24,015 bases of DNA. It comes from a virus (taxonomy: Duplodnaviria > Heunggongvirae > Uroviricota > Caudoviricetes). Below the pieces are notes generated by a model that was not told the origin of the DNA, made no database searches, and was given only the letters and a program-made list of their open reading frames with translations. The translations under genes were made by a program, and so were the position numbers. Positions 3,308 through 22,448 of the stretch are shown here, one piece after another. The stretch lies in the IMG/VR virus record IMGVR_UViG_2563366887_000004; one strand, 5' to 3'. Positions within the stretch are counted from its first letter, which is position 1; every line of letters begins with the position of its first letter.

Positions 3308-3883
3308 CTACGGCAGTGCTGGCCATTCAATATCCGGTGCAGTTGATGTATCAACACGGTTCAGCAACACCCGATACTTTTTCCAGGCTTCCAGCAACAA
3401 GGTTTCTTCCTCCGTTGCGATCTCCAGATCCACAGCATCCTGAAGCGGCGCTATATGCTCACTGGCTATCTGCATCAGGCTGTTTTTTGTTTCTTCCGCC
3501 TCCCGGATCCGGAACAGTTTTTCTGCTTCCGTATCCTTCACCCAGGCTGTGCCGTTCCACTTCTGATATTCCCCTCCCGGCGATAACCAGGTAACATTTT
3601 CCGGTAACGGACCGAGTTCAGAAATAAATAACGCGTCCCCTGATGCCACGTCATAAACCGTTTTACCCCGATGATCTTCAACGAGATGCCACGATGCCTC
3701 ATCACTGTTGAAAACAGCCACGAAGCCTGCCGGAATATCTGGCGGTGCAATATCGGTACTGTTTGCTGGCAGACCTGTATGAGGCGGAATATATGCGTCA
3801 CCTTCACCAATAAATTCATTAGTTCCGGCCAGCAGATTATAAATTTTTATGGTCCGTGGTTGTTCACTCATTCTGAATGCCAT
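3308..3883 (-). CDS. tfaQ: tail fiber assembly protein
   Basis: 191-aa ORF immediately downstream of a tail-fibre C-terminal fragment on the same strand; recognised as Tfa-family sequence with the Qin TfaQ length. Confidence 0.85.
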
Positions 3884-6846: not shown

Positions 6847-7075
6847 GCAAAAAAGCTCCCGAAGGAGCCTTCATTTTCACTTTTTTAAATCCAACGACAG
6901 ACGGCTGGCATTTAAGTATTGTGAAATATTATCAAATGTAATCATCATTGATTTACAAAAGATACATTTTGCCCCGAAAGGATTCATGTCAGAAACATCA
7001 AAAGATGATGTTCTATACTGGGAACCATGACAACACGGGCATCTAAAGTGAATATGGTTTGTAATATTGTCTACC

Positions 7076-7288
7076 TCAAAGCGCCACTACATGAACAGCG
7101 GCAGGACCTTTAGGTCCGTTCTCAATACCAAATTCAACTTCCTGATTCTCAGTTAATGTTTTGAAATCGTTGCTCTGAATTGCTGAGAAATGGACAAACA
7201 CATCTTTGCTGCCATCTTTCGGCGTGATGAAACCAAAACCTTTTTCAGGGTTAAACCATTTCACTAAACCAGTCATTTTGTTAGACAT
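7076..7288 (-). CDS. cspI: cold-shock protein (CspA family)
   Basis: 70 aa with RNP1/RNP2-like motifs KGFGFI and VFVHF; sequence [23 protein letters not shown]...; long 5' UTR upstream. Confidence 0.9.
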
Positions 7289-7650
7289 AATTATTACCTT
7301 TTGAAGAAATTAGCCCTTGGGCAGAATGGTCCGAAAAAAAATATCAGAGAGAAAAACCAACAAGGAAATCTCAAGAGGTACAAATAATAAAATTATAACA
7401 ATGACTGCTTCAGATAAATTTGTAACAAACCAGAACACCATTAACGCATGATTAACCACCCATAGCAAGGATTACTTTTGTAAAGAAAAACACAGCAATG
7501 AAAGAATAGCTTTATTTATTAATAAAACGTGTCATTCTGATTAAGACCTTTTATCTTACCCTTAAGATTTCAGGAATTTTGGCTCATGGAAGAGTCCTTT
7601 TTATTTAAATTTTACATTCCGCGATGTAAATGTTCCGATTTAATATTACC

Positions 7651-8674
<1,024 letters not shown>

Positions 8675-8678
<4 letters not shown>

Positions 8679-8986
8679 AGATATTTATGATGAGGACGCT
8701 CGTGCTTATTGGCAGGATTTTCAATCTTAAAGGAGTACTGATGCTGCAGATAAGACTCAACTTTTTCTGACAATTTTTCTGCTACTTCCAGGAAGACTTG
8801 CCGGACGCTCCTTCTGGCTGCTGCCTCATAAAACTCCAGCGCAGCTCCTTCAACACGGTCCATGGCGACATCCAGGTCAAAAATTTCACCGTCAAAGCGT
8901 TCTTTGTCCTGTAAGGCTACAGTTACCGTAACTTTATTCTCAAAATTACGGACTCCTTTCACAACCAGTTCATAGTCTTGAGTCAT
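8675..8986 (-). CDS. ydfR: YdfR, prophage protein of unknown function inside the lysis cassette
   Basis: 103-aa ORF, translationally coupled (overlapping stop/start) with the endolysin gene; between holin and endolysin. Confidence 0.65.
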
Positions 8987-8990
8987 TGGA

Positions 8991-9206
8991 TTACTCTCCT
9001 CTCGCAGCCTTACGCCTGTCTTCTTTAATCTTGAAATAAAGATTTGTCAGATACGTCAGCAGGCCAAAAACCAGGCTACCCAGCACACCGATTGCAGCCC
9101 ACTGTGACGGAGTTACTTTATCGAGTAACTGCAATGCCCAGAAACCAGCATTACCCGCCGATGTGCCATAGGCAACACCTGTTGTTAACTTATCCATTGA
9201 TTTCAT
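8991..9206 (-). CDS. essQ: class II holin (pinholin, phage 21 S21-like) with dual-start motif MKSMDK
   Basis: The ORF-track ORF (8991..9281) begins at a GTG; the internal start gives a 71-aa product [26 protein letters not shown]...[15 protein letters not shown] with two TM segments, resembling S21. The exact start coordinate carries +/-1-2 nt uncertainty from hand counting. Confidence 0.8.
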
Positions 9207-9680: not shown

Positions 9681-9959
9681 GATTGTGGTGCTTTTTGTGG
9701 GAGTCATCCACTTACGCACTTTGTTTTGCCATGCCAGCAGTTAGCTTCTGCTGTAAAACTATTCATGCAGCAAACCTGCACTTCACCACAATGGTTAGCA
9801 TACTTTTCCTGATTAAGATTTTGCCAAATATGCTAGCCATTGTTTCATGTATTGGACCTCCTTACTTTTTATTAAAGAGATCCAATATTCACTACTCTGT
9901 CCGTATCTCTACTCAGGCATCAGCCTTCTTCGTTATCGTATACAGACGAGCGATGAATT

Positions 9960-10175
9960 TTAATCAGTAATGATGACATTTGCTGCTGCAGGACCTTTAG
10001 CACCACTCTCTATAGAGAAGGTAACCTTTTGACCTTCAAATAAGGTTCGATAATTATCATTCTGAATCGCAGAAAAATGCACAAACACATCTTTACTACC
10101 ATCAACAGGAGAAATAAAGCCGAAACCTTTATCAGCGTTAAACCATTTTACTAAACCAGTCATTTTATTTGACAT
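9960..10175 (-). CDS. cspB: cold-shock protein (CspA family)
   Basis: 71 aa [23 protein letters not shown]...; recognised as the CspB sequence. Confidence 0.9.
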
Positions 10176-10475
10176 TCTACATTCCTTAACTTGAGCCTTT
10201 CGGCATAAATGGTTTGCATAACAGAAACGACTTCGTACTTAATTGGAGAGACTCAAAGAAGGAATAAGTGAATAACACCTGAAATGAGAACTGCTTTAGT
10301 AAACTACTTCGTATATCGTCTGTTCTTCAAACCGACGCAATCATTAACGCATAGTTGAACATATGAAGCAATGTTTATTTTAGACATCCAGCCATCTTCA
10401 ACCCCATCAAAAAACTATAGCTTTCTTCAGGAACGTGTGTATAGTGCGCCAAGTTATCAGTATTAAGGAATTTTT

Positions 10476-10688: not shown

Positions 10689-10978
10689 GCTATATTAAAG
10701 CTTTAATTTCAGGCCCCATCGGATCACACATGGAGAGTTTTTATGAATAACCCCGTCTGTCTTGATGACTGGTTGATTGGCTTTAAAAGCTTATGCTGTA
10801 CTTTGGCCGTAATAGCTCTGCTAATAATATAATAAGCAGACTCATTGTGTTTAGGGACATTGTACTGGAAGAAAACATTTTAAACATCAGGCAAATAACC
10901 AAGTCACCAGCTAAATAATAAGTTAACAGACATGAGTCCCGGGATGAGATTCAACATTACCATTGCCCCATTTAAAGC

Positions 10979-11012
10979 ACAAAACCCGCTCATCAGCGGG
11001 TTTTCTACTTTT
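10979..11012. terminator. hairpin terminator (AACCCGCT / AGCGGGTT) with flanking T-tracts on both strands; candidate tR'-like terminator for the late promoter
   Basis: AAAACCCGCTCATCAGCGGGTTTTCTACTTTTTCTT; on the minus strand the hairpin is followed by UUUUGUGC. Lies about 65 nt downstream of the predicted pR'-like promoter. Confidence 0.5.
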
Positions 11013-11049
11013 TCTTAACGTCGGGTATACAAAGCCCATCGTTGAAAAA

Positions 11050-11078
11050 ATTTTATCCATATTTTTTGAAAAATGCAA
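11050..11078 (-). promoter_or_regulatory. candidate late promoter (pR'-like): -35 TTGCAT, 17-bp spacer, -10 TAAAAT, immediately downstream of the Q gene
   Basis: Minus strand reads TTGCAT-N17-TAAAAT; location just 3' of the Q-family gene and 5' of the hairpin terminator mirrors lambda Q/pR'/tR' organisation. Confidence 0.45.
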
Positions 11079-11109
11079 ACATCATGTCGCCATCTTCAGC
11101 AAAAATCAT

Positions 11110-11740
11110 TTATCTCGTCACCTTCCTCAATTGCGCTTCCGCGTATGCTTCTTCCTGCCAGCACTTTGTTACCAGTTTACCAATGACGTCCGCATACCCC
11201 TTATACCACTGATAATCGGTCAGGTCTGGTACCAGCTTCTGGACATGACGTCGTGCCAGCGTGGTCGGTAAACGACTAAACCGGTTTCCATTACAACGCC
11301 CACAAATCTTATATACCGGTACGCCATGAAACCGGGTTCTTTTTTCATCCAGAACAATCCCTTTACCCTTACACCCTCTGCACGCTGTGCTGGCTTCGCC
11401 CTTACCATGGCAATGCTGACATAGTTCCTTCACCAGAACAGGTCTAAGTAATACCCGCACGTTACCTCCAGATCCGTTGCTGGAAAGTGCGGGACGCACG
11501 TGGTGGGCGTTCGGAATAAGGCAGCCTGACAGAGATTATCCAGTGCCGATAGTCGAGACTGAGAGCTTTCTTAACCTCGAACCCGCGCCTGCGGTAAGAA
11601 TGAATCAGCCATTCGGCCTGTTCTGCAGTGCATGGAGGGTGCTGGAACCATTCAGACTTGAATGCGTGAGAATACCGCCCGTGCGTGCAGGCAAGAACGG
11701 GCGAATTATCAGAATTGTAATATTTTGCGTTGCGTGCCAT
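11110..11740 (-). pseudogene. quuQ: Q-family late antiterminator, split into two overlapping frames (apparent frameshift)
   Basis: The C-terminal ORF (11110..11499) carries lambda-Q-like zinc-finger and C-terminal motifs (CQHCHGKG...CRGCKGKG, CGRCNGNRFSRLP). The N-terminal 92-aa ORF (11462..11740) is in a different frame; the 631-nt span is not a multiple of 3 and together the two pieces total about 210 aa, like lambda Q (207 aa). Confidence 0.6.
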
Positions 11741-12274: not shown

Positions 12275-12430
12275 TTACTCCTCAGGTTCGTAAGCTGTGA
12301 AGACAGCGACCTCCGTCTGGCCGGTTCGGATTCGTACCTCGCAGAGGTCTTTCCTCGTTACCAGTGCCGTCACTATGACGGTTAAACAGATGACGATCAG
12401 GGCGATTAACATCGCCTTTTGCTGCTTCAT
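12275..12430 (-). CDS. hokD: Hok-family type I toxin (51 aa), third gene of the relBEF operon
   Basis: Hand-translated: MKQQKAMLIALIVICLTVIVTALVTRKDLCEVRIRTGQTEVAVFTAYEPEE, stop TAA at 12277..12275. Under 60 aa, so absent from the ORF track; two antisense ORF-track ORFs overlap it and are rejected. Confidence 0.8.
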   Translation of the reverse strand: MKQQKAMLIALIVICLTVIVTALVTRKDLCEVRIRTGQTEVAVFTAYEPEE

Positions 12431-14329: not shown

Positions 14330-15643
14330 TCAATCTTTTTTATCGGGATCAGGCTTCTTTTTAGGTAACTTCGGGGGCTTAACTTGCTGATGACTTTGCG
14401 TTCGGCGCGTAAGCCAGGGATGGTCAGCTTTAGGTTTAACATAGTATTTTGAGCGTAAATCAATACGGGCATTATCCACTCGTTCATGGACACTCTTTTC
14501 ATCATCCAGTGGTATAGGCTCCGGGCCATCAACATACTTTTCCCAGCCCAGCGCTTTCCCGTCATACAGAACGTTAATTTCACCGTCAAAGTTCTCGCAT
14601 ACAGTAACAACCGAATGCCTAAGTCGATATCCCCGGCCCTCACTGCGTACCTGAAACGCACTGCTTTTGTACTGGAAAGTGAGATTTTTAGACAGAACGC
14701 GCTTCGCCTGTAGGCTGAAGATATAACCCAGTTCCTCTTCAGAATGGTGCACATCAAGATGAGCATTATCAGTAGTACGAGGCGACGTAGCGAACCGGTT
14801 GTTATAGGCTTCAATAAAGGTCGGCAACCATGCATTTGCTGTTTCAATATCACTGATATTCTGAAGCCGCATTTCTTTGACCAGCCTGTCCTGTAGTGTC
14901 TGATTGGCGCGCTCTACCCGCCCTTTTGCCTGCGGGCTGTTGGCATGGATTGGCTCGATGCCCAGTGTCTTTATCGCACGAGTGAACTGGGTCAGCTCAC
15001 CTTCCCGCTCTGGGTTATTTACCCTGAATATACTGTGTCTATCAGAGTAGAGAGCGAGCGGTACGCCATGATCATTAAGGTAACCCCGGAGGGTTTCCAT
15101 GTAAGCCCGGGTTGTTTCAGCAGGCACAAAACGCAACGCCATCAACGCACTGGTGGCATCATCAATGAAAACGATCAGTGTACATCTGGGGCCTCGATTT
15201 TCAAACCAGTCATGAGGTGAGCCATCAATCTGGATCAGTTCACCGTAAGATGGTCGTCGCATGCGGCGTTGATATATACGGGCAATTTTACGACGGCGTT
15301 CACGCCATAACCCCTCTTCTATCATCCACTTTCTGAGAGTTTCAACGGATAAAGATAAACCGTGTATCTCGCGCAATTTTTCGCACGCAAACGTAGGTCC
15401 AAAATCAGCGTAACGGCCTTTGAGGAGTGAAATTACTGTTGCTCTGAATTCAGTAGAAAAGGAATTATTAGGACGCTTTCCACGTCGGTGGGAAACCAGA
15501 CCAGAAGGCCCTTCATTTCTATACCGTTGCACCAGACGTTTAACCTGCCGAATAGAAATGCCAATGCGTGCCGCAGCTTGTTCCTGAATAATCTGAAGTC
15601 GGTGGAGTTCCTTATGACTCATCGTAACAGTCTCTTTGATCAT
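14330..15643 (-). CDS. DDE-type transposase/integrase with N-terminal HTH and rve-like catalytic core (IS481/ISNCY-like; family not resolved)
   Basis: 437 aa; HTH-like N-terminus (IGISIRQVKRLVQRY) and catalytic-core motifs (IQIDGSPHDW, VFIDDATSA, YSDRHSIF, KGRVERANQTL); strong SD GGGGGA 7 nt upstream of the ATG. Element termini not resolved. Confidence 0.8.
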   Translation of the reverse strand: MIKETVTMSHKELHRLQIIQEQAAARIGISIRQVKRLVQRYRNEGPSGLVSHRRGKRPNNSFSTEFRATVISLLKGRYADFGPTFACEKLREIHGLSLSVETLRKWMIEEGLWRERRRKIARIYQRRMRRPSYGELIQIDGSPHDWFENRGPRCTLIVFIDDATSALMALRFVPAETTRAYMETLRGYLNDHGVPLALYSDRHSIFRVNNPEREGELTQFTRAIKTLGIEPIHANSPQAKGRVERANQTLQDRLVKEMRLQNISDIETANAWLPTFIEAYNNRFATSPRTTDNAHLDVHHSEEELGYIFSLQAKRVLSKNLTFQYKSSAFQVRSEGRGYRLRHSVVTVCENFDGEINVLYDGKALGWEKYVDGPEPIPLDDEKSVHERVDNARIDLRSKYYVKPKADHPWLTRRTQSHQQVKPPKLPKKKPDPDKKD

Positions 15644-15977
15644 GAAAAATCCCCCAGAGAATTGTCTGGGGACATTTTAGAATGGTTCAAAGGGGACATT
15701 ACAGCTTGGTGTTAACAATAGCCTGCTTCTCCGTGCCTTTCGGCACGTAAGAGGCTAACCTACATGTGTCTAGCATGAAATTGGCCTCAGATTAATGTTA
15801 AGCGTCTTGCAGGACGCGTAATGTTAACTGGGGCTTTTCTCTATCTGCCGTTGGTGTCCATGCCCGAGGCAGATAGCCTCAAGCACCCGCAGTCATTCTA
15901 CTTAACTAAGATTTCCCCGCAAACCGTTTTTGTCCAGCACAGTAAATATCCAACTAAACCAATGGAGTTCGCTGTAT

Positions 15978-16157
15978 TTACCGCCAGTATTCAATGCACA
16001 TGACCGCCATGAACACCCCTAAAAAAAGGGCATTTATATATCCAAATATTAATATCAAAACATCAACTTTTTCCATATACCTTGCTGTGAAGATGATGGG
16101 CATACATGATGCGAACAACCAGAACGCAACAAACAAAAACTGCAATGCGTTTTTCAT
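15978..16157 (-). CDS. candidate small membrane protein (59 aa, two predicted TM helices)
   Basis: Internal ATG of ORF-track ORF 15978..16196 preceded by a near-perfect SD (TAGGAGGAATA-ATG); product MKNALQFLFVAFWLFASCMPIIFTARYMEKVDVLILIFGYINALFLGVFMAVMCIEYWR. No homology evidence. Confidence 0.3.
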   Translation of the reverse strand: MKNALQFLFVAFWLFASCMPIIFTARYMEKVDVLILIFGYINALFLGVFMAVMCIEYWR

Positions 16158-16259
16158 TATTCCTCCTACAATCAATGTGCAATTACATTTAAACACACCT
16201 CAATTTGGCCGGACATATAAATATCTAAACCAGAAAAAATCACTTACATAGCGTTACAA

Positions 16260-16920
16260 ACTCTTTAGTCTAAAGGTTCATCGTAAAACATTCCCCATAC
16301 TTATCAGTCCGTTCCGCGCCAGGTAGCTCATTGCCTTATCTGGCAACCTGTAATCAGGTTTCCGCTTTTTCAGTTGGCTGGTCGTTTAACCGACATAGTT
16401 AATCCATTAATCTAGTTGCCGGATGTTGGTGGATTTTCGCGTTTTAGTTGTTCATAAAAGTGCACAGCTTTAACCAGTTCTTCTGATGTAACTGGGACTG
16501 GTGAGGCAGTGAATAAGGCCTGAATTTGATAGTTCGGCCTGTCGTTACAATCCTCTTTTTTCGGTACATATTTCCAGTCACCAGACCACTACTTCCCCTG
16601 AAAGTCCGTAACGCCTTTTTTCACGTAGCGATATCGCCATGCCACTGGTTTTGCTTGCCCCGCCGTTTCATGCCCTTCCTGATAATTAATCTCGCTCATT
16701 CATCGCCCCACTCATCACAATATGCTTCGACCGGAGTTTTTCCCGCTTCATAGTCATCACGCTAGGATTCGACATCAGCAGCACTTCCACCGCGTAACTC
16801 ACCATAGTCCATTAATAGTTCATCCCGCTCTTCAAAACTGATGTTATATTTAGCTGAACAAAAATCAGCCACTTTGTTCTTCCTCATCGTCTTTTATTTC
16901 GTGGTATGAGTAATTGCAGT
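16260..16920 (-). pseudogene. degraded coding remnant: protein-like segments in shifting frames interrupted by stops
   Basis: Minus-strand translation gives protein-like pieces in consecutive frames (MRKNKVADFCSAKYNISFEERDELLMDYGELRGGSAADVES*RDDYEAGKTPVEAYCDEWGDE*; MSEINYQEGHETAGQAKPVAWRYRYVKKGVTDFQGK*; WSGDWKYVPKKEDCNDRPNYQIQALFTASPVPVTSEELVKAVHFYEQLKRENPPTSGN*), consistent with a frameshifted/nonsense-disrupted gene. Confidence 0.3.
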
Positions 16921-17309
16921 AGTTAAAGAAAATTTCTTATGCTCCGTCATGAATTTCCTCAGGTGTTGCGTCATCGTCCACTTCGAATACATCCTCAAAA
17001 TCTCCACCAGCTATTCCCGTTTCAATAATAATTTTGAACTTTCGCATTTCACTACCGCCCTTTCGGGCGGCCTCCTGATGTTCTGAGGGTGCAGAAATCC
17101 ATCCGGTTAAGGATTAAATTTTATTTACAGAACTGAATTTAATTATTCAGATATACGTATCTGTAGCCTTACGAATCTACTCACTGGATGCCTCTTTCAT
17201 AAAAATAATCCAGTGGGTTTTATCGTTTTTTCCCTGTTCGTTGACAGATAACAGGTTTTCTGTCTGTCAGTGCCAGAATCTGGCTTACCGGTATTTGCGT
17301 TTCATTCCA

Positions 17310-17666
17310 TTAAAAAATCAGAACGCCGTGCGGCCTCAACACCCGAAAGGCTTCTTTAAATCTCTGTCGCGAATCATCACGCCAGGCATCTTTATTCAGC
17401 CGTCCATATTTCTTTCCCATCCAGGCGTTATCACCAACACTCTCAAGATGCGGAGGGTCTAATACAACCATCGAAAAAGATGCGTCTGCAAATGATAATG
17501 CACGAAAATCTGCGATAATGTCAGGGCTGATAATCAAGCGTCTCCCATTGCGTAATGTGTATCCTTCTTTTCTGATATCGCTGAATATCGCCCGTTCGTC
17601 AGACTTATCGAACCAGAACATGCGGCTGCCACAGCACATATCAAGAATGGTTGCCGGTGCACTCAC
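17310..17666 (-). CDS. small amino-methyltransferase, likely phage DNA N6-adenine (Dam-like) methylase; possibly truncated
   Basis: 118 aa with SAM-binding motif I-like ILDMCCGS and a DPPH (NPPY-type) motif about 60 residues later, ending ...LRPHGVLIF; GTG start overlaps the stop of the upstream ORF (translational coupling). Confidence 0.55.
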   Translation of the reverse strand: MSAPATILDMCCGSRMFWFDKSDERAIFSDIRKEGYTLRNGRRLIISPDIIADFRALSFADASFSMVVLDPPHLESVGDNAWMGKKYGRLNKDAWRDDSRQRFKEAFRVLRPHGVLIF

Positions 17667-17929
17667 TGCGCCACGTCCTGAAAATTACCCTGATAGAAAG
17701 CCAGTATGCGCTGCATAACTTCGCTCTTCCGGCACTCGCGACAGATTATGTTTAGGCGACTGTCGTAGCGACGTATTTCTCCGTCAGGTGATGACCAGAT
17801 AAGGTCCGGATCAACCACAGCAGGTTTCTTCACCTTTGCCCTCGAGAGTTTTTTGCGGGCGTTTTGCCAGTCCTTACGCGCCTGTTCAGAGGGGAATAAC
17901 CCGTATCCGGAGCTTAAGTTGCACGCCAT
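17663..17929 (-). CDS. hypothetical protein (88 aa) upstream of and coupled to the methyltransferase
   Basis: ATG-initiated ORF with protein-like basic/charged composition and a CxxC pair (CRECRK); its stop overlaps the methyltransferase GTG start. Its 5' end overlaps the divergent exonuclease-gene frame. Confidence 0.35.
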   Translation of the reverse strand: MACNLSSGYGLFPSEQARKDWQNARKKLSRAKVKKPAVVDPDLIWSSPDGEIRRYDSRLNIICRECRKSEVMQRILAFYQGNFQDVAQ

Positions 17930-18283
17930 TGGGTGGGTTAAGCATAAATGTATTCCTGGTGCTAAATGGCCCGAAATTCAGGCAGAGATGCGCATCTGGA
18001 AAAAACGTCGCGAAGGTGAACGCAAGGAAACCGGAAAATACACGTCTGTTGTTGATCTCGCCCGCGCCAGAGCCAATCAACAGTACACTGAAAATTCAAC
18101 AGGAAAAATCAGCCCGGTCATTGCTGCCATTCATCGCGAATACAAGCAGACATGGAAAACACTGGATGACGAACTGGCCTACGCTCTCTGGCCTAGTGAT
18201 GTGGATGCCGGAAACATTGACGGCAGCATCCATCGCTGGGCAAAAAAAGAAGTTATCGACAACGACCGCGAAGACTGGAAGCG
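17853..18283 (+). pseudogene. 5' part of an insertion-disrupted exonuclease-family gene (upstream of the IS600-like insertion)
   Basis: Open frame from 17853 (TTG) with a candidate ATG at 17988; the frame runs into the IS terminal repeat, which supplies the last five codons (EVYWQ*). Continues in-frame at 20771 once the IS and one copy of the GCG duplication are removed. Confidence 0.6.
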
Positions 18284-18326
18284 TGAGGTGTACTGGCAAT
18301 AGCGGACACTACCATTTGTTCTTTTT

Positions 18327-19145
18327 TTAAGCAGCCATCTGATGATATTTTTCCCTGAAGGCTGCCGGGGAGATATTCCCCAGACGAGAGTGACGACGCT
18401 GACGATTGTAGAAAATCTCAATGTATTCCCGTATTACTGAGATGGCTTCATCCCGGTTATTAAAACGATAGTGGCTCAGGCTCTCATTTTTCAGCGTTCC
18501 CCAGAAGCTTTCCATCGGAGCGTTGTCGTAACAGTTACCTTTACGCGACATTGATGTTTTCAGACCAAACTGCTCCTGTATGACCCGGTAATCGTATGCG
18601 CAGTACTGTGAACCTCGATCAGAGTGGTGGATTAGCCCGGCAGGTGGGCGCTGGCTCCTGAGCGCCATAAACAGGGCTTTACCTGTCAGCTCTTTTGTCA
18701 TGCACTCTCCCATGGCGTAGCCGACAATTTCGCACGTATAAACATCTTTGATGCCAGCGAGGTACAACCATCCCTCCTGTGTGGCAACATACGTCAGGTC
18801 CGCCACCCAGACCTGATTTGGTGCTGTAGGAGCGAACGTCTGGTTCAGCAGATTTGGCGCAACTGGCAGATTGTGGTTCGAGTTCGTAGTCGCTCTGAAC
18901 TTGCGTTTCTGCTTACAGCGTAGCCTTAGCTCCTTACGAAGACGTGCCAGTCGGTCACGACCAACGATGATGCCATTCTCTGCCAGCTCCGTCTGGAGCC
19001 GCCGGGTTCCATATGTTTCGCGAGTGCGGATATGTGCCACCTTAATCTCCAGTTTTAGCCGCTCATCACTTTGTTTTCTGTCTGAGGGTTCATGCTGTAC
19101 CCAGTTGTAATAACCGCTCCTGGATACACCAAATACCTGACACAT
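18327..19145 (-). CDS. IS3-family (IS600-like) transposase OrfB, DDE catalytic domain
   Basis: 272-aa ORF MCQVFGVSRSGYYNWVQHEP... with DDE motifs (WVADLTYV, HHSDRGSQY, NCYDNAPMESFWGTLK); the frame overlaps the 3' end of orfA as expected for a -1 frameshift fusion. Confidence 0.85.
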   Translation of the reverse strand: MCQVFGVSRSGYYNWVQHEPSDRKQSDERLKLEIKVAHIRTRETYGTRRLQTELAENGIIVGRDRLARLRKELRLRCKQKRKFRATTNSNHNLPVAPNLLNQTFAPTAPNQVWVADLTYVATQEGWLYLAGIKDVYTCEIVGYAMGECMTKELTGKALFMALRSQRPPAGLIHHSDRGSQYCAYDYRVIQEQFGLKTSMSRKGNCYDNAPMESFWGTLKNESLSHYRFNNRDEAISVIREYIEIFYNRQRRHSRLGNISPAAFREKYHQMAA

Positions 19146-19222
19146 CGCTTCAATGGGAAATTGTTGTCGCCATTGTTCGATTAACGCGTATTTTTCAGCG
19201 ACTCCTGTGCAAAATACGCTGT

Positions 19223-20443
19223 TGTAGATTCAATCTGTCAATGCAACACCCCTTTCAATTATCTCTTTCGGTGTTTTGAACTTCAGTGTCTTTCTCGGTC
19301 TGTTGTTTAGCTGAGCAGCAACCAGATCTAGTTCATGTTGAGTATATTGGGCAAGACATGTCTTTTTAGGAAAGTACTGCCGAATTAGCCCATTTGTGTT
19401 CTCATTTGTTCCCCGCTGCCAAGGACTCTGAGGATCGCAGAAGTAAACTTTAACGCCGGTGCTGACAGTAAATTCTAGATGTCTGGCCAGTTCCATTCCT
19501 CTGTCCCATGTCAGTGATTTTCTGAGTTCTGACGGTAAACTCAGGAATTTGTCGGTAAGAGCCTGATTTACTGAGACAGAATCTTTGCCCCTGAGTCTAA
19601 GGATGATCGTATAACGTGATTTTCGGTCTACAAGTGTGGCTATATGAGAGTTTTTTGTACCTGAGACTAAATCGCCCTCCCAATGTCCCAGAGAGCGTCT
19701 GTTATCGATATTTCGGGAACGTTCGTGAATTGGTGTTCCGTTCACTATGTTAATCGTACCTCTTTCGCCTTTGCGGGTATGACGCCTGCCATGGCGAAGG
19801 CTATGCGACCGTCGCAGATGCTGTATATTCAGGTGGTGTAGCGCTTCACGGCTACGAAAGTACAGCGTTTTATAAATTGTCTCAGGTGATATTCGCAGCG
19901 TTTTTTGACGTGGTTTTGTTCGCCTTAACCATCCTGATATTTGCTCTGGAGACCATTTCATCTCCAGCTTTTCCAGAACAAGCTTTCGCAATGGTAAATT
20001 TTGATCCAGTAAGCACGGTTTTGGCCTTTTCGCCATTCTGTTGGCTCGGTTATTAGCATCAACAGCTTTGTAATAGCGTCTGCCCCGATTACGCTGAACT
20101 TCACGTGAGATCGTCGAAGGACTGCGATTCAGCGCAGTAGCTATCGCACGAATGCTCATTTTGGCTGACAAACCAGCTCGTATCTCCTCGCGCTCAGACA
20201 GTGTCAGGTGAGCTACAGCCCGCTTACGCTCATGGGGTTTTATGCCGCCAGTATCCCTTAACATAGTGAAGATCGTTCCGGGTTTTGAACCCAGGATATT
20301 CGCTATTTCACTGAAGCCTGTTCCGTTCTTCCATAGTTCAAAAACAGAGGCTTTTTCCTCTGCTGTAAATGTTCGTCTCATTCAAAAAACCTCCGCAACC
20401 CCATGTTTTCACATAACTGTTGCGTTGACCAATTGAATCTACA
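19223..20443 (-). mobile_element. IS30, complete (1221 bp) with terminal inverted repeats and 2-bp target-site duplication GT
   Basis: Ends TGTAGATTCAAT... (19223) and ...ATTGAATCTACA (20443); the 20443 end on the minus strand reads TGTAGATTCAATTGGTCAACGCAACAGTTATGTG, matching the IS30 IR as I recall it; length exactly 1221 bp; GT at 19221-19222 and 20444-20445. Confidence 0.9.
19230..20381 (-). CDS. insI: IS30 transposase (383 aa)
   Basis: 383-aa ORF MRRTFTAEEKASVFELWKNGTGFSEIANILG... recognised as IS30 transposase; lies within the IS30 boundaries. Confidence 0.95.
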   Translation of the reverse strand: MRRTFTAEEKASVFELWKNGTGFSEIANILGSKPGTIFTMLRDTGGIKPHERKRAVAHLTLSEREEIRAGLSAKMSIRAIATALNRSPSTISREVQRNRGRRYYKAVDANNRANRMAKRPKPCLLDQNLPLRKLVLEKLEMKWSPEQISGWLRRTKPRQKTLRISPETIYKTLYFRSREALHHLNIQHLRRSHSLRHGRRHTRKGERGTINIVNGTPIHERSRNIDNRRSLGHWEGDLVSGTKNSHIATLVDRKSRYTIILRLRGKDSVSVNQALTDKFLSLPSELRKSLTWDRGMELARHLEFTVSTGVKVYFCDPQSPWQRGTNENTNGLIRQYFPKKTCLAQYTQHELDLVAAQLNNRPRKTLKFKTPKEIIERGVALTD

Positions 20444-20770
20444 GTTGCTTTTTTTAATATATCTCGCTCAAGGCGAGCTTCATTTAACGCCTTACGCAGT
20501 TGCAGAATTTCAGATTCCAGTTCAGCCACCGTGCGGGAACCAGGAGTACCGAGCCCTTTTCTGGCGGCGGTAACCCATTGTCCTAAAGTGCCTTCAGGAA
20601 GAGATAATCGGGAAGCGCCTTCACTGATCGAAAGTTGATTTTCAAGAACCGTTCTGACAGCTTCGGCTTTGAACTCTTTAGAGTAACGTTGGGTTTTTCT
20701 GCTCATTATTAGCTCCTTCTGATGCCATTCTATTTCAGGAAGGAGTGTCCGTTAAACTCAGGCTACCTCA

Positions 20771-22376
20771 GCGTATCTCGGCATCAATGCGCAAACAGCC
20801 TGATGCCCTTCGCTACGACCGCCAAACTATTTTTGGCCTTGTCCGTGAGCGTCCGATCGACATTCACAAAGATCCCGTAGCACTGAACAAATATATCTGC
20901 GAATACCTGACGACAAAGGGCGTGTTTGAGAATGAAGAAACAGACCTGGGCACTGTTGATGTTCTCCAGTCATCAGAAACACAAACTGATGCAGTGGAAA
21001 CTGAGGTATCTGATATCCCAAAAAATGAAACCGCGCCGGAAGCTGAACCATCTGTAGAGCGTGAGGGGCCGTTCTATTTCCTCTTCGCAGATAAGGACGG
21101 AGAAAAATACGGTCGCGCAAACAAACTCTCTGGTCTGGATAAGGCACTGGCTGCTGGCGCCACTGAAATCACAAAAGAAGAATATTTTGCCCGAAAAAAT
21201 GGCACATACACGGGCTTACCGCAAAATGTAGATACCGCTGAAGATTCAGAACAACCAGAGCCGATAAAAGTTACCGCTGACGAAGTAAACAAAATTATGC
21301 AGGCAGCCAATATCAGCCAGCCTGACGCCGATAAGTTGCTTGCTGCATCACGTGGTGAATTTGTTGAAGGGATTAGTGACCCGAATGATCCGAAATGGGT
21401 TAAGGGGCTCCAGACCCGCGATTCTGTGAACCAGAACCAGCATGAATCGGAACGGAACTACCAAAAAGCGGAACAAAACAGTCCAAATGCGTTACAAAAC
21501 GAGCCAGAAACGAAACAGCCTGAACCAGTAGCGCAACAGGAAGTGGAAAAAGTCTGCACCGCCTGCGGTCAGACCGGCGGCGGCAACTGCCCTGATTGTG
21601 GCGCGGTGATGGGCGACGCAACATACCAAGAAACATTCGATGAAGAGTATCAGGTTGAAGTTCAGGAAGATGATCCGGAGGAAATGGAAGGCGCTGAACA
21701 TCCACACAAGGAGAACACTGGCGGCAATCAGCATCACAATAGCGATAATGAAACTGGCGAGACGGCAGATCACCCAATTAAGGTGAACGGTCATCACGAA
21801 ATCACATCCACCAGCAGGACGTGTGACCATCTAATGATCGACCTTGAAACCATGGGAAAAAATCCTGATGCCCCGATCATCTCAATAGGTGCAATATTTT
21901 TCGATCCGCAAACCGGAGATATGGGACCGGAATTTAGTAAGACTATCGATCTGGAAACTGCTGGCGGAGTCATTGATCGGGACACCATTAAATGGTGGCT
22001 TAAGCAATCACGCGAAGCGCAATCTGCCATTATGACCGATGAAATCCCGTTAGATGATGCACTGTTACAATTGCGAGAATTTATCGACGAAAACTCCGGT
22101 GAATTTTTTGTTCAGGTTTGGGGAAATGGAGCCAACTTCGACAACACGATTTTGCGCCGTTCATACGAACGGCAGGGGATCCCCTGCCCGTGGCGTTACT
22201 ACAACGATCGCGATGTACGCACAATCGTTGAGCTGGGGAAAGCCATAGACTTCGATGCCAGAACGGCTATTCCATTCGAAGGTGAGCGCCATAATGCACT
22301 TGATGACGCCCGTTACCAGGCAAAATACGTTTCAGTTATCTGGCAAAAACTGATCCCGAGTCAGGCTGATTCTTAA
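20771..22376 (+). pseudogene. 3' part of the insertion-disrupted gene: acidic linker, C4 zinc ribbon and C-terminal DEDDh 3'-5' exonuclease domain
   Basis: In frame with 17853..18283 across the IS. Contains CTACGQTGGGNCPDCG (zinc ribbon) and exonuclease motifs Exo I MIDLETMG, Exo II WGNGANFDNTIL, Exo III HNALDDARY. The ORF-track start at 20745 is a GTG inside the IS terminal repeat and is artefactual. Confidence 0.65.
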
Positions 22377-22448
22377 TGTTCAACTGTCGCCGGTTGTGAC
22401 TGGTATTCTGCAACCGGCGCTCGTCTGATGTAAGAGATAAAGAAATCG

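Follow-up and report, generated by a model that had tools for sequence, protein, structure and literature searches.

What has become of the Q antiterminator gene in a 24,015-nt stretch of Caudoviricetes DNA (IMG/VR record IMGVR_UViG_2563366887_000004; hereafter the window)? A preliminary description, made from the sequence alone, had pointed to two minus-strand open reading frames (ORFs) of 92 aa (11462..11740) and 129 aa (11110..11499), which overlap in different frames over 11462-11499, as the ORF list confirms. It read them as a single Q protein of about the size of Q-lambda, split by a frameshift just upstream of an intact late promoter and terminator. Base-by-base comparison with Escherichia coli K-12 leads to a different answer. 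The window is Qin, a cryptic prophage of E. coli, very probably in a rare derived state that arose when a single illegitimate deletion of 1,465 bp, mediated by microhomology, truncated both the Q gene, quuQ (also named ydfT), and its upstream neighbour ydfU. The 92-aa ORF is a separate gene that the deletion left unaffected, and the sequence downstream of quuQ retains a close homologue of the lambda late promoter pR'.

A 1,465-bp deletion in the Qin prophage

Over its whole length, the window is 100% identical, without a break, to the genome of E. coli FORC_081 (megablast), where RefSeq provides an annotation for the identical 24,015 bases. The other best-matching genomes, among the matches listed, align in two to three pieces, and in most of them the corresponding span is 1,465 bp longer than the window. 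Assignment to Qin rests on the neighbouring genes (cspI, essQ-ydfR-rrrQ-rzpQ, cspB, cspF, rem, hokD, relE, relB, ydfV and flxA), which share gene order and near-identity with K-12 Qin, from ydfK through cspI, the lysis genes, cspB, cspF, ydfT, rem, hokD and relBE to flxA.

In K-12 (locus L001, same strand), the 92-aa gene (WP_012304870.1) is followed by ydfU (349 aa, DUF968), ydfT/quuQ (250 aa, antitermination protein), an intergenic region, cspF and cspB. In a base-by-base comparison, the window matches K-12 exactly as far as position 11434 when followed from the left and down to 11431 when followed from the right. The left and right matches are offset by 1,465 bp, corresponding to L001 3736-5200, which are absent from the window. 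The alignment that the preliminary description had proposed, with an intact Q gene, to locate an indel thus reveals a large deletion and no small indel. The junction (11431..11434) is a 4-bp microhomology, CACC (GGTG on the coding strand). The deletion removed ydfU codons 11-349 and quuQ/ydfT codons 1-143, the front 57% of the Q gene; K-12 retains both the 349-aa YdfU and the 250-aa Q. Apart from this loss the two Qin copies are closely alike: the order of the 92-aa gene, ydfU, ydfT, the pR' region, cspF, cspB and essQ-ydfR-rrrQ-rzpQ is the same, nucleotide identity is 100% on both sides of the junction, and the flanking and lysis proteins share RefSeq accessions.

Among 5,426 complete E. coli genomes, precisely this junction is present in two, FORC_081 and CM2010-0578/1, each of chicken origin; an intact 92-aa gene/ydfU/ydfT segment (coverage ≥80%) is present in 1,545. 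Phages SfV and Tritos carry a full-length, 753-bp Q gene with an HNH/DUF968 gene directly upstream. Because these phages keep both genes, and because the QuuQ N-terminus that is missing here aligns with Q-lambda 1-125, the sequences argue that the intact Q/ydfU state is ancestral and that the window carries a rare, recent deletion. The same two observations led us to reject the reverse polarity, an ancestral window arrangement interrupted by an insertion in K-12.

The 92-aa gene and the ydfU'-'quuQ fusion

The 92-aa ORF (11462..11740, minus strand) is identical to the K-12 gene upstream of ydfU and is an intact coding sequence in FORC_081. It matches phrog_1212, a family of unknown function, at E=1.7e-35, whereas Q matches phrog_127 in the same PHROG comparison, and BLASTP of the 92-aa ORF against QuuQ gave no alignment at E≤100. 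The protein also occurs on its own on at least 1,000 contigs, and phage Tritos has a 279-bp gene in the corresponding position upstream of YdfU. These comparisons indicate that the 92-aa ORF is a complete prophage gene that is unrelated to Q and not part of it.

What adjoins this gene is an in-frame fusion ORF, ydfU'-'quuQ, of 116 aa (11110..11460, minus strand), defined by translation and junction analysis. It starts at the GTG start codon of ydfU (11460-11458), preceded by a Shine-Dalgarno (SD) sequence GGAGG (11469-11465), and ends at a TAA stop (11112-11110); the TAA stop of the 92-aa gene (11464-11462) lies 1 nt before the fusion start. The first 9 codons of ydfU, a DUF968/HNH nuclease gene, remain at 11435..11460 (minus strand), with the remainder deleted. 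The C-terminal 106-107 codons of quuQ and its stop occupy 11110..11434 (minus strand) and are 100% identical to K-12 ydfT up to 11434. The product is a chimera of YdfU 1-10 and QuuQ 145-250, with a junction valine common to both, and reads V/M-RVLLRPVLV-KELCQHCHGKG... to the normal Q stop. The alternative raised in the preliminary description, in which a deletion joined the start of some upstream nin-region gene to the end of Q, was therefore essentially right as to the event, but the donor is the first 10 codons of ydfU and not the 92-aa ORF.

The 129-aa ORF (11110..11499, minus strand) is the same fusion frame stretched mechanically upstream, into the 92-aa gene, as far as another in-frame GTG at 11499. 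The 38-nt overlap between the two ORFs (11462-11499) arises because this call extends past the real ydfU start at 11460. No exact match to the 129-aa form was found in the protein collection, whereas the exact 116-aa protein is already public (ELH47689.1, E. coli KTE197) and is present on 13 contigs. The Prokaryotic Genome Annotation Pipeline (PGAP) labels 11110-11433 as 'antitermination protein; incomplete; missing N-terminus', that is, as a pseudogene. The deletion pseudogene is hence already known, flagged in RefSeq and with its fusion protein in public databases, and the significance of the locus lies mainly in its correct annotation: this is ordinary decay of a cryptic prophage, in which the regulator of the late operon was destroyed and the promoter, pause site, terminator and lysis genes were kept. 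For readers working from sequence only, it also holds a caution, as an overlapping ORF beside a truncated gene is not necessarily its missing half.

What the Q remnant keeps and loses

The remnant scores 109.8 bits against the Q-lambda family Antiterm (PF03589; gathering score 26.7), compared with 181.3 bits for intact K-12 QuuQ, so that the zinc-finger CxxC and Q C-terminal motifs recognized in the second ORF by the preliminary description are indeed those of a Q protein. QuuQ aligns with Q-lambda in the Protein Data Bank entry 7ubm (chain 7ubm_Q) at E=4.6e-36, with QuuQ 1-120 corresponding to Q-lambda 1-125 and QuuQ 160-250 to Q-lambda 117-207. In the structural account by Yin et al. (2022; PMC9388147), the torus, or nozzle, that sits in the RNA-exit channel is built from Q-lambda residues 1-44, a four-helix body that carries the helix-turn-helix (HTH) from residues 61-113 and 153-207, and a zinc-ribbon arm from residues 114-152. 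The same paper states that Q-lambda lacking residues 1-38 loses antitermination entirely and keeps binding to the Q-binding element (QBE).

Mapped onto this structure, the zinc ribbon is retained: the motifs CRGC...CGRC (QuuQ C161/C164/C187/C190) align with both CxxC motifs of the Q-lambda arm, whose cysteines are C118/C121/C144/C147 by count from the alignment. QuuQ 1-143, the part aligned with Q-lambda 1-125, is deleted. The remnant accordingly has no nozzle, no flap-tip-contacting helix and no first half of the four-helix body; by alignment, only the second half of the body (approximately Q-lambda 153-207) is kept, and the HTH-bearing C-terminal helices stay with it. Because the nozzle N-terminus and half of the helical body are absent, the remnant has very likely lost antitermination activity, and its stable folding is doubtful.

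The Q protein of this type has a feature of its own in the arm. Relative to Q-lambda, K-12 QuuQ carries an insert of about 43 aa within residues 113-190 and has four CxxCxGxG motifs in all, and the full-length protein passes the gathering score of the Pfam family DnaJ_CXXCXGXG (35.4 versus 32.7 bits). This pattern points to a possible double zinc site, like that of DnaJ, within the arm of QuuQ; the first of the four motifs was removed by the deletion. Fragments of Q are also represented among PHROG families, namely phrog_19003 (114 aa, corresponding to Q 142-250), phrog_25523 (Q 1-123) and phrog_21867 (Q 1-55), so that deposited phage and prophage genomes appear to contain Q genes in truncated or split form repeatedly. 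In a literature search, none of the papers listed carried quuQ or ydfT in title or abstract, and most of the matches were to unrelated strings.

A predicted late promoter, pause element and terminator of the lambda type

Directly downstream of the Q gene lies a predicted sigma-70 late promoter of the pR' type (11050..11078, minus strand), with the -35 element TTGCAT (11078-11073) beginning 31 nt after the Q stop, a 17-nt spacer and the -10 element TAAAAT (11055-11050). The Qin sequence TTGCAT-TTTTCAAAAAATATGGA-TAAAAT-TTTTTC-AACGATGGG and the lambda sequence TTGACT-TATTGAATAAAATTGGG-TAAATT-TGACTC-AACGATGGG align in one ungapped register. In the spacer, the position of the QBE in lambda, 11 of 17 bases are identical to lambda pR' (counted from both sequences), and the spacer is nearly invariant among the QuuQ-type phages compared. 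A promoter scan returned 12 sites against 6.7 expected in 3.3 kb and placed the TTGCAT-N17-TAAAAT site in a neighbouring register. Because a consensus match by itself is not above chance here, our promoter call rests on homology to pR' and on conservation among phages.

Homology to lambda also indicates where transcription would begin. The 11-mer TCAACGATGGG (11035..11045, minus strand) is identical to lambda pR' and occurs once in the window, with 0 occurrences expected by chance. It contains the putative start site, A 11043, and the hexamer AACGAT (11043-11038), followed by GGG. AACGAT at +1 to +6 is what we take to be the -10-like, sigma-dependent pause element of pR', and RNA polymerase would accordingly be expected to start and pause in the region of 11043. 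The hexamer is invariant in four phage and prophage sequences. Altogether, 35 phage records match the 3' end of Q and the pR'/tR' region, with 86-100% DNA identity for SfV, Tritos, 2H10, PhiR42_1 and Stx2c-converting phages, and each of Tritos, SfV and an Stx2c-converting phage preserves the -35 element, the spacer, the pause element and also the hairpin. Judged by this similarity, the Qin promoter is clearly a true homologue of lambda pR'.

The promoter is followed by a tR'-like intrinsic terminator (10974..11004, minus strand), comprising a hairpin at 11004-10981 and a U-rich tail to approximately 10974. The RNA hairpin is AAAACCCGCU-GAUG-AGCGGGUUUU, then GUGCUUU (in DNA, AAAACCCGCT-GATG-AGCGGGTTTT, then GTGCTTT, 11004->10981), and lies about 64 nt from the putative start at 11043, in keeping with the spacing of about 65 nt between promoter and hairpin given by the preliminary description. 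The predicted leader, from 11043 to approximately 10976, folds at -30.4 kcal/mol (z = -6.7 versus shuffles), and the predicted product is a short terminated transcript of about 64-70 nt. In SfV, the homologous hairpin is annotated as a putative rho-independent terminator, and stem and T-run are conserved across phages. Homology to lambda pR' thus strengthens the proposal of a pR'/tR'-like unit at this site, as does its conservation in phages SfV and Tritos and in Stx2c phages.

Our terminator scan reports the hairpin on the plus strand only; the minus-strand form goes unlisted because the scan absorbs A/U pairs into the stem and too few T residues are left in the tail. A- and T-runs flank the tR' hairpin at either end and make it bidirectional, and it likewise faces the convergent cspF and a 29-aa ORF (10743-10832). 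An Rfam scan of the whole window found nothing in the pR'-tR' leader, its only matches, elsewhere, being cspA-type thermoregulators, IS009 and sok.

A Q-dependent cassette is described as laid out in the order Q gene, pR', sigma-dependent pause element, terminator and late genes (PMC9388147). At the level of sequence, the window has the promoter, the pause element and the intrinsic terminator of this layout, and a functional upstream Q is missing. For the Qin/SfV/Stx2c type of late promoter, the comparison provides clear sequence evidence of close homology to lambda pR'; the pause element is the same, and the leader is much shorter.

The lysis cassette and its tolerance

The presumed target of Q-modified transcription is the lysis cassette (7651..9206, minus strand), recognized by Pfam matches and translation. 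It comprises, all on the minus strand, an essQ/essD-type P21 holin gene (PF04971; 8991-9206), ydfR (DUF1327; 8675-8986), the phage lysozyme gene rrrQ, whose product has an N-terminus like that of signal-anchor-release (SAR) proteins (8145-8678), and rzpQ, encoding an Rz-like DUF2514 protein (7651-8148). The lysis genes had been described as intact, and the P21-type holin, SAR-like lysozyme and Rz-like protein agree with this.

The cold-shock gene cspF (plus strand), cspB (minus strand) and ynfU (plus strand) are located between pR' and the lysis cassette. Since cspF and ynfU sit between pR'/tR' and the lysis genes, Q-modified transcription would run antisense through both. Matches to the cspA-type thermoregulator of 5' untranslated regions (RF01766) are found at 9944-10336 (minus strand), upstream of cspB, and at 7049-7434 (minus strand), upstream of cspI.

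Might loss of Q explain how the host tolerates these genes, as the preliminary description suggested? We rejected this proposal. K-12 has an intact quuQ, a pR' region that is 100% identical and lysis proteins with the same RefSeq accessions as those of the window strain, and the intact 92-aa gene/ydfU/Q segment is found in the 1,545 complete genomes counted above. Loss of Q is not needed for tolerance because hundreds of genomes carry the lysis cassette together with an intact Q. As long as their early operons are repressed, lambdoid prophages generally do not produce Q. Loss of Q in the window is a consequence of decay and not a requirement for tolerance.

Proposed history and alternative explanations

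The account that we favour begins from the K-12-like arrangement. One microhomology-mediated deletion took ydfU codons 11-349 and quuQ codons 1-143, the break happening to fall in frame. The 116-aa chimera is now headed by the start codon and ribosome-binding site of ydfU, which are coupled to the stop of the 92-aa gene, itself intact. This chimera keeps the zinc ribbon and HTH-bearing helices, and without the nozzle and the first half of the body it very probably cannot antiterminate. As pR', the AACGAT pause element and the tR' hairpin are untouched, a short terminated RNA would still be expected. Without resident Q, nothing would take RNA polymerase past tR' and across the cspF/cspB region as far as the lysis genes, and the late operon would presumably be silent.

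Other Qin copies have lost Q in comparable ways. In SW07091, a deletion has left 399 bp of Q together with 300 bp of ydfU; in SCZE5, ECJXMCRH7 and XH993, Q is reduced to 162 bp; in N61, 654 bp of Q are fused to a rem remnant; and several strains have IS1 insertions in ydfT. Like the window, these alleles have lost or interrupted the 5' part of quuQ while keeping pR' and the Q 3' end, and PGAP labels them pseudogenes missing the N-terminus. They differ in end points and sizes and so represent independent events, with at least three further deletions, and only the present allele keeps the 92-aa gene intact together with an in-frame fusion of the ydfU start to Q. This pattern is consistent with ongoing neutral decay of the quuQ-ydfU interval in Qin.

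Several points weigh against this account. Loss of Q function is argued from homology to Q-lambda, and the residue mapping around the arm is approximate, given that the QuuQ insert and its two additional CxxCxGxG motifs have no counterpart in Q-lambda. The junction is seen at the level of assemblies, several independent ones of which agree. The in-frame fusion, with its intact start signal, may also still yield a protein. If it were both made and useful, the chimera could act as a nozzle-less, DNA-binding Q fragment that occupies the QBE or the paused complex and blocks pR'-type late transcription in a dominant-negative manner, which would shield the host from its own lysis cassette or from superinfecting SfV-, Tritos- and Stx2c-type phages that share pR'. 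The SD sequence, start codon and translational coupling of the in-frame fusion would favour such a role, as would the retained zinc ribbon and HTH region, the presence of the same pR' in active phages, and the published finding that Q-lambda without residues 1-38 binds the QBE and cannot antiterminate (PMC9388147). Against it, half of the four-helix body (approximately Q-lambda 61-113) is gone, making stable folding doubtful; the allele is so rare among complete genomes (2 of 5,426) that it gives no sign of selection; and the out-of-register deletions of the same interval in other strains fit neutral decay. We give a protective chimera a slender chance.

The remaining explanations dispense with a deletion altogether. 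Repeat-bearing prophage regions misassemble easily, and the preliminary description had named sequencing error as an alternative, in which case the deletion would be absent from the living strain. Such an artefact is hardly credible because FORC_081 and CM2010-0578/1, complete assemblies that are independent of each other, share the junction, and 13 contigs, E. coli KTE197 included, encode exactly this fusion protein; moreover, the breakpoint shows a clean microhomology of 4 bp and lacks any long repeat liable to collapse. The original interpretation, a small indel that frameshifted one Q gene to leave the 92-aa ORF as its N-terminal part and the 129-aa ORF as its C-terminal part, drew on the overlap of the ORFs in different frames and on their summed length of 221 aa, near the 207 aa of Q-lambda. 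Such a split would have both ORFs aligning with consecutive parts of one homologue on either side of a small indel, but the gap is 1,465 bp, the 92-aa ORF exists in K-12 as a separate gene that is complete in itself, belongs to a different PHROG family and has no similarity to QuuQ, and the real Q N-terminus (residues 1-143, homologous to Q-lambda 1-125) went with the deleted DNA. The preliminary description had itself named homologues showing the 92-aa ORF to be unrelated as grounds for abandoning its interpretation, and the K-12, PHROG and BLASTP comparisons supply exactly these. With the base-by-base walk and the BLASTP result against it, a Q gene split by frameshift was rejected, and we see practically no chance that it is correct. 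A single deletion that truncated quuQ and ydfU is the explanation we retain.

Other features of the window

Decay is heavy in the integrase-proximal part of the window (14330-22400), which contains ISNCY, IS600 and IS30 elements and several genes annotated in FORC_081 as frameshifted or truncated. Within it, Rfam reports a sok antitoxin RNA match at 15717-15888 (minus strand; 104 bits) with no Hok-like ORF adjoining. The match abuts a truncated ISNCY transposase gene (14600-15622), is distinct from hokD at 12275-12430, and looks like an orphaned hok/sok remnant. An Rfam match to IS009 RNA (3342-3540, minus strand; 221 bits) falls within the tail-fibre assembly gene tfaQ.

Comparison with lambda and related phages

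The Q/pR'/tR' cassette of phage lambda (Q-lambda family, PF03589; structures 7ubm and 4mo1) is a close counterpart of this locus. Ancestral QuuQ aligns with Q-lambda in both the N- and C-terminal parts, and the two late promoters share their register (-35, 17-nt spacer and -10), the identical TCAACGATGGG at the start and pause site, and an intrinsic terminator thereafter. The terminator hairpin, by contrast, lies about 190 nt downstream in lambda, as read from the lambda sequence, compared with about 64 nt in Qin, and Qin further differs in the QuuQ insert of about 43 aa, in the cold-shock genes between tR' and the lysis genes, and in its truncated Q. Among the QuuQ-type phages, Tritos has the same order of 92-aa gene, YdfU, Q, cspB and S. 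SfV and Tritos differ from the window in their full-length 753-bp Q gene and in a -10 element that reads TAAGAT in place of the TAAAAT of Qin.

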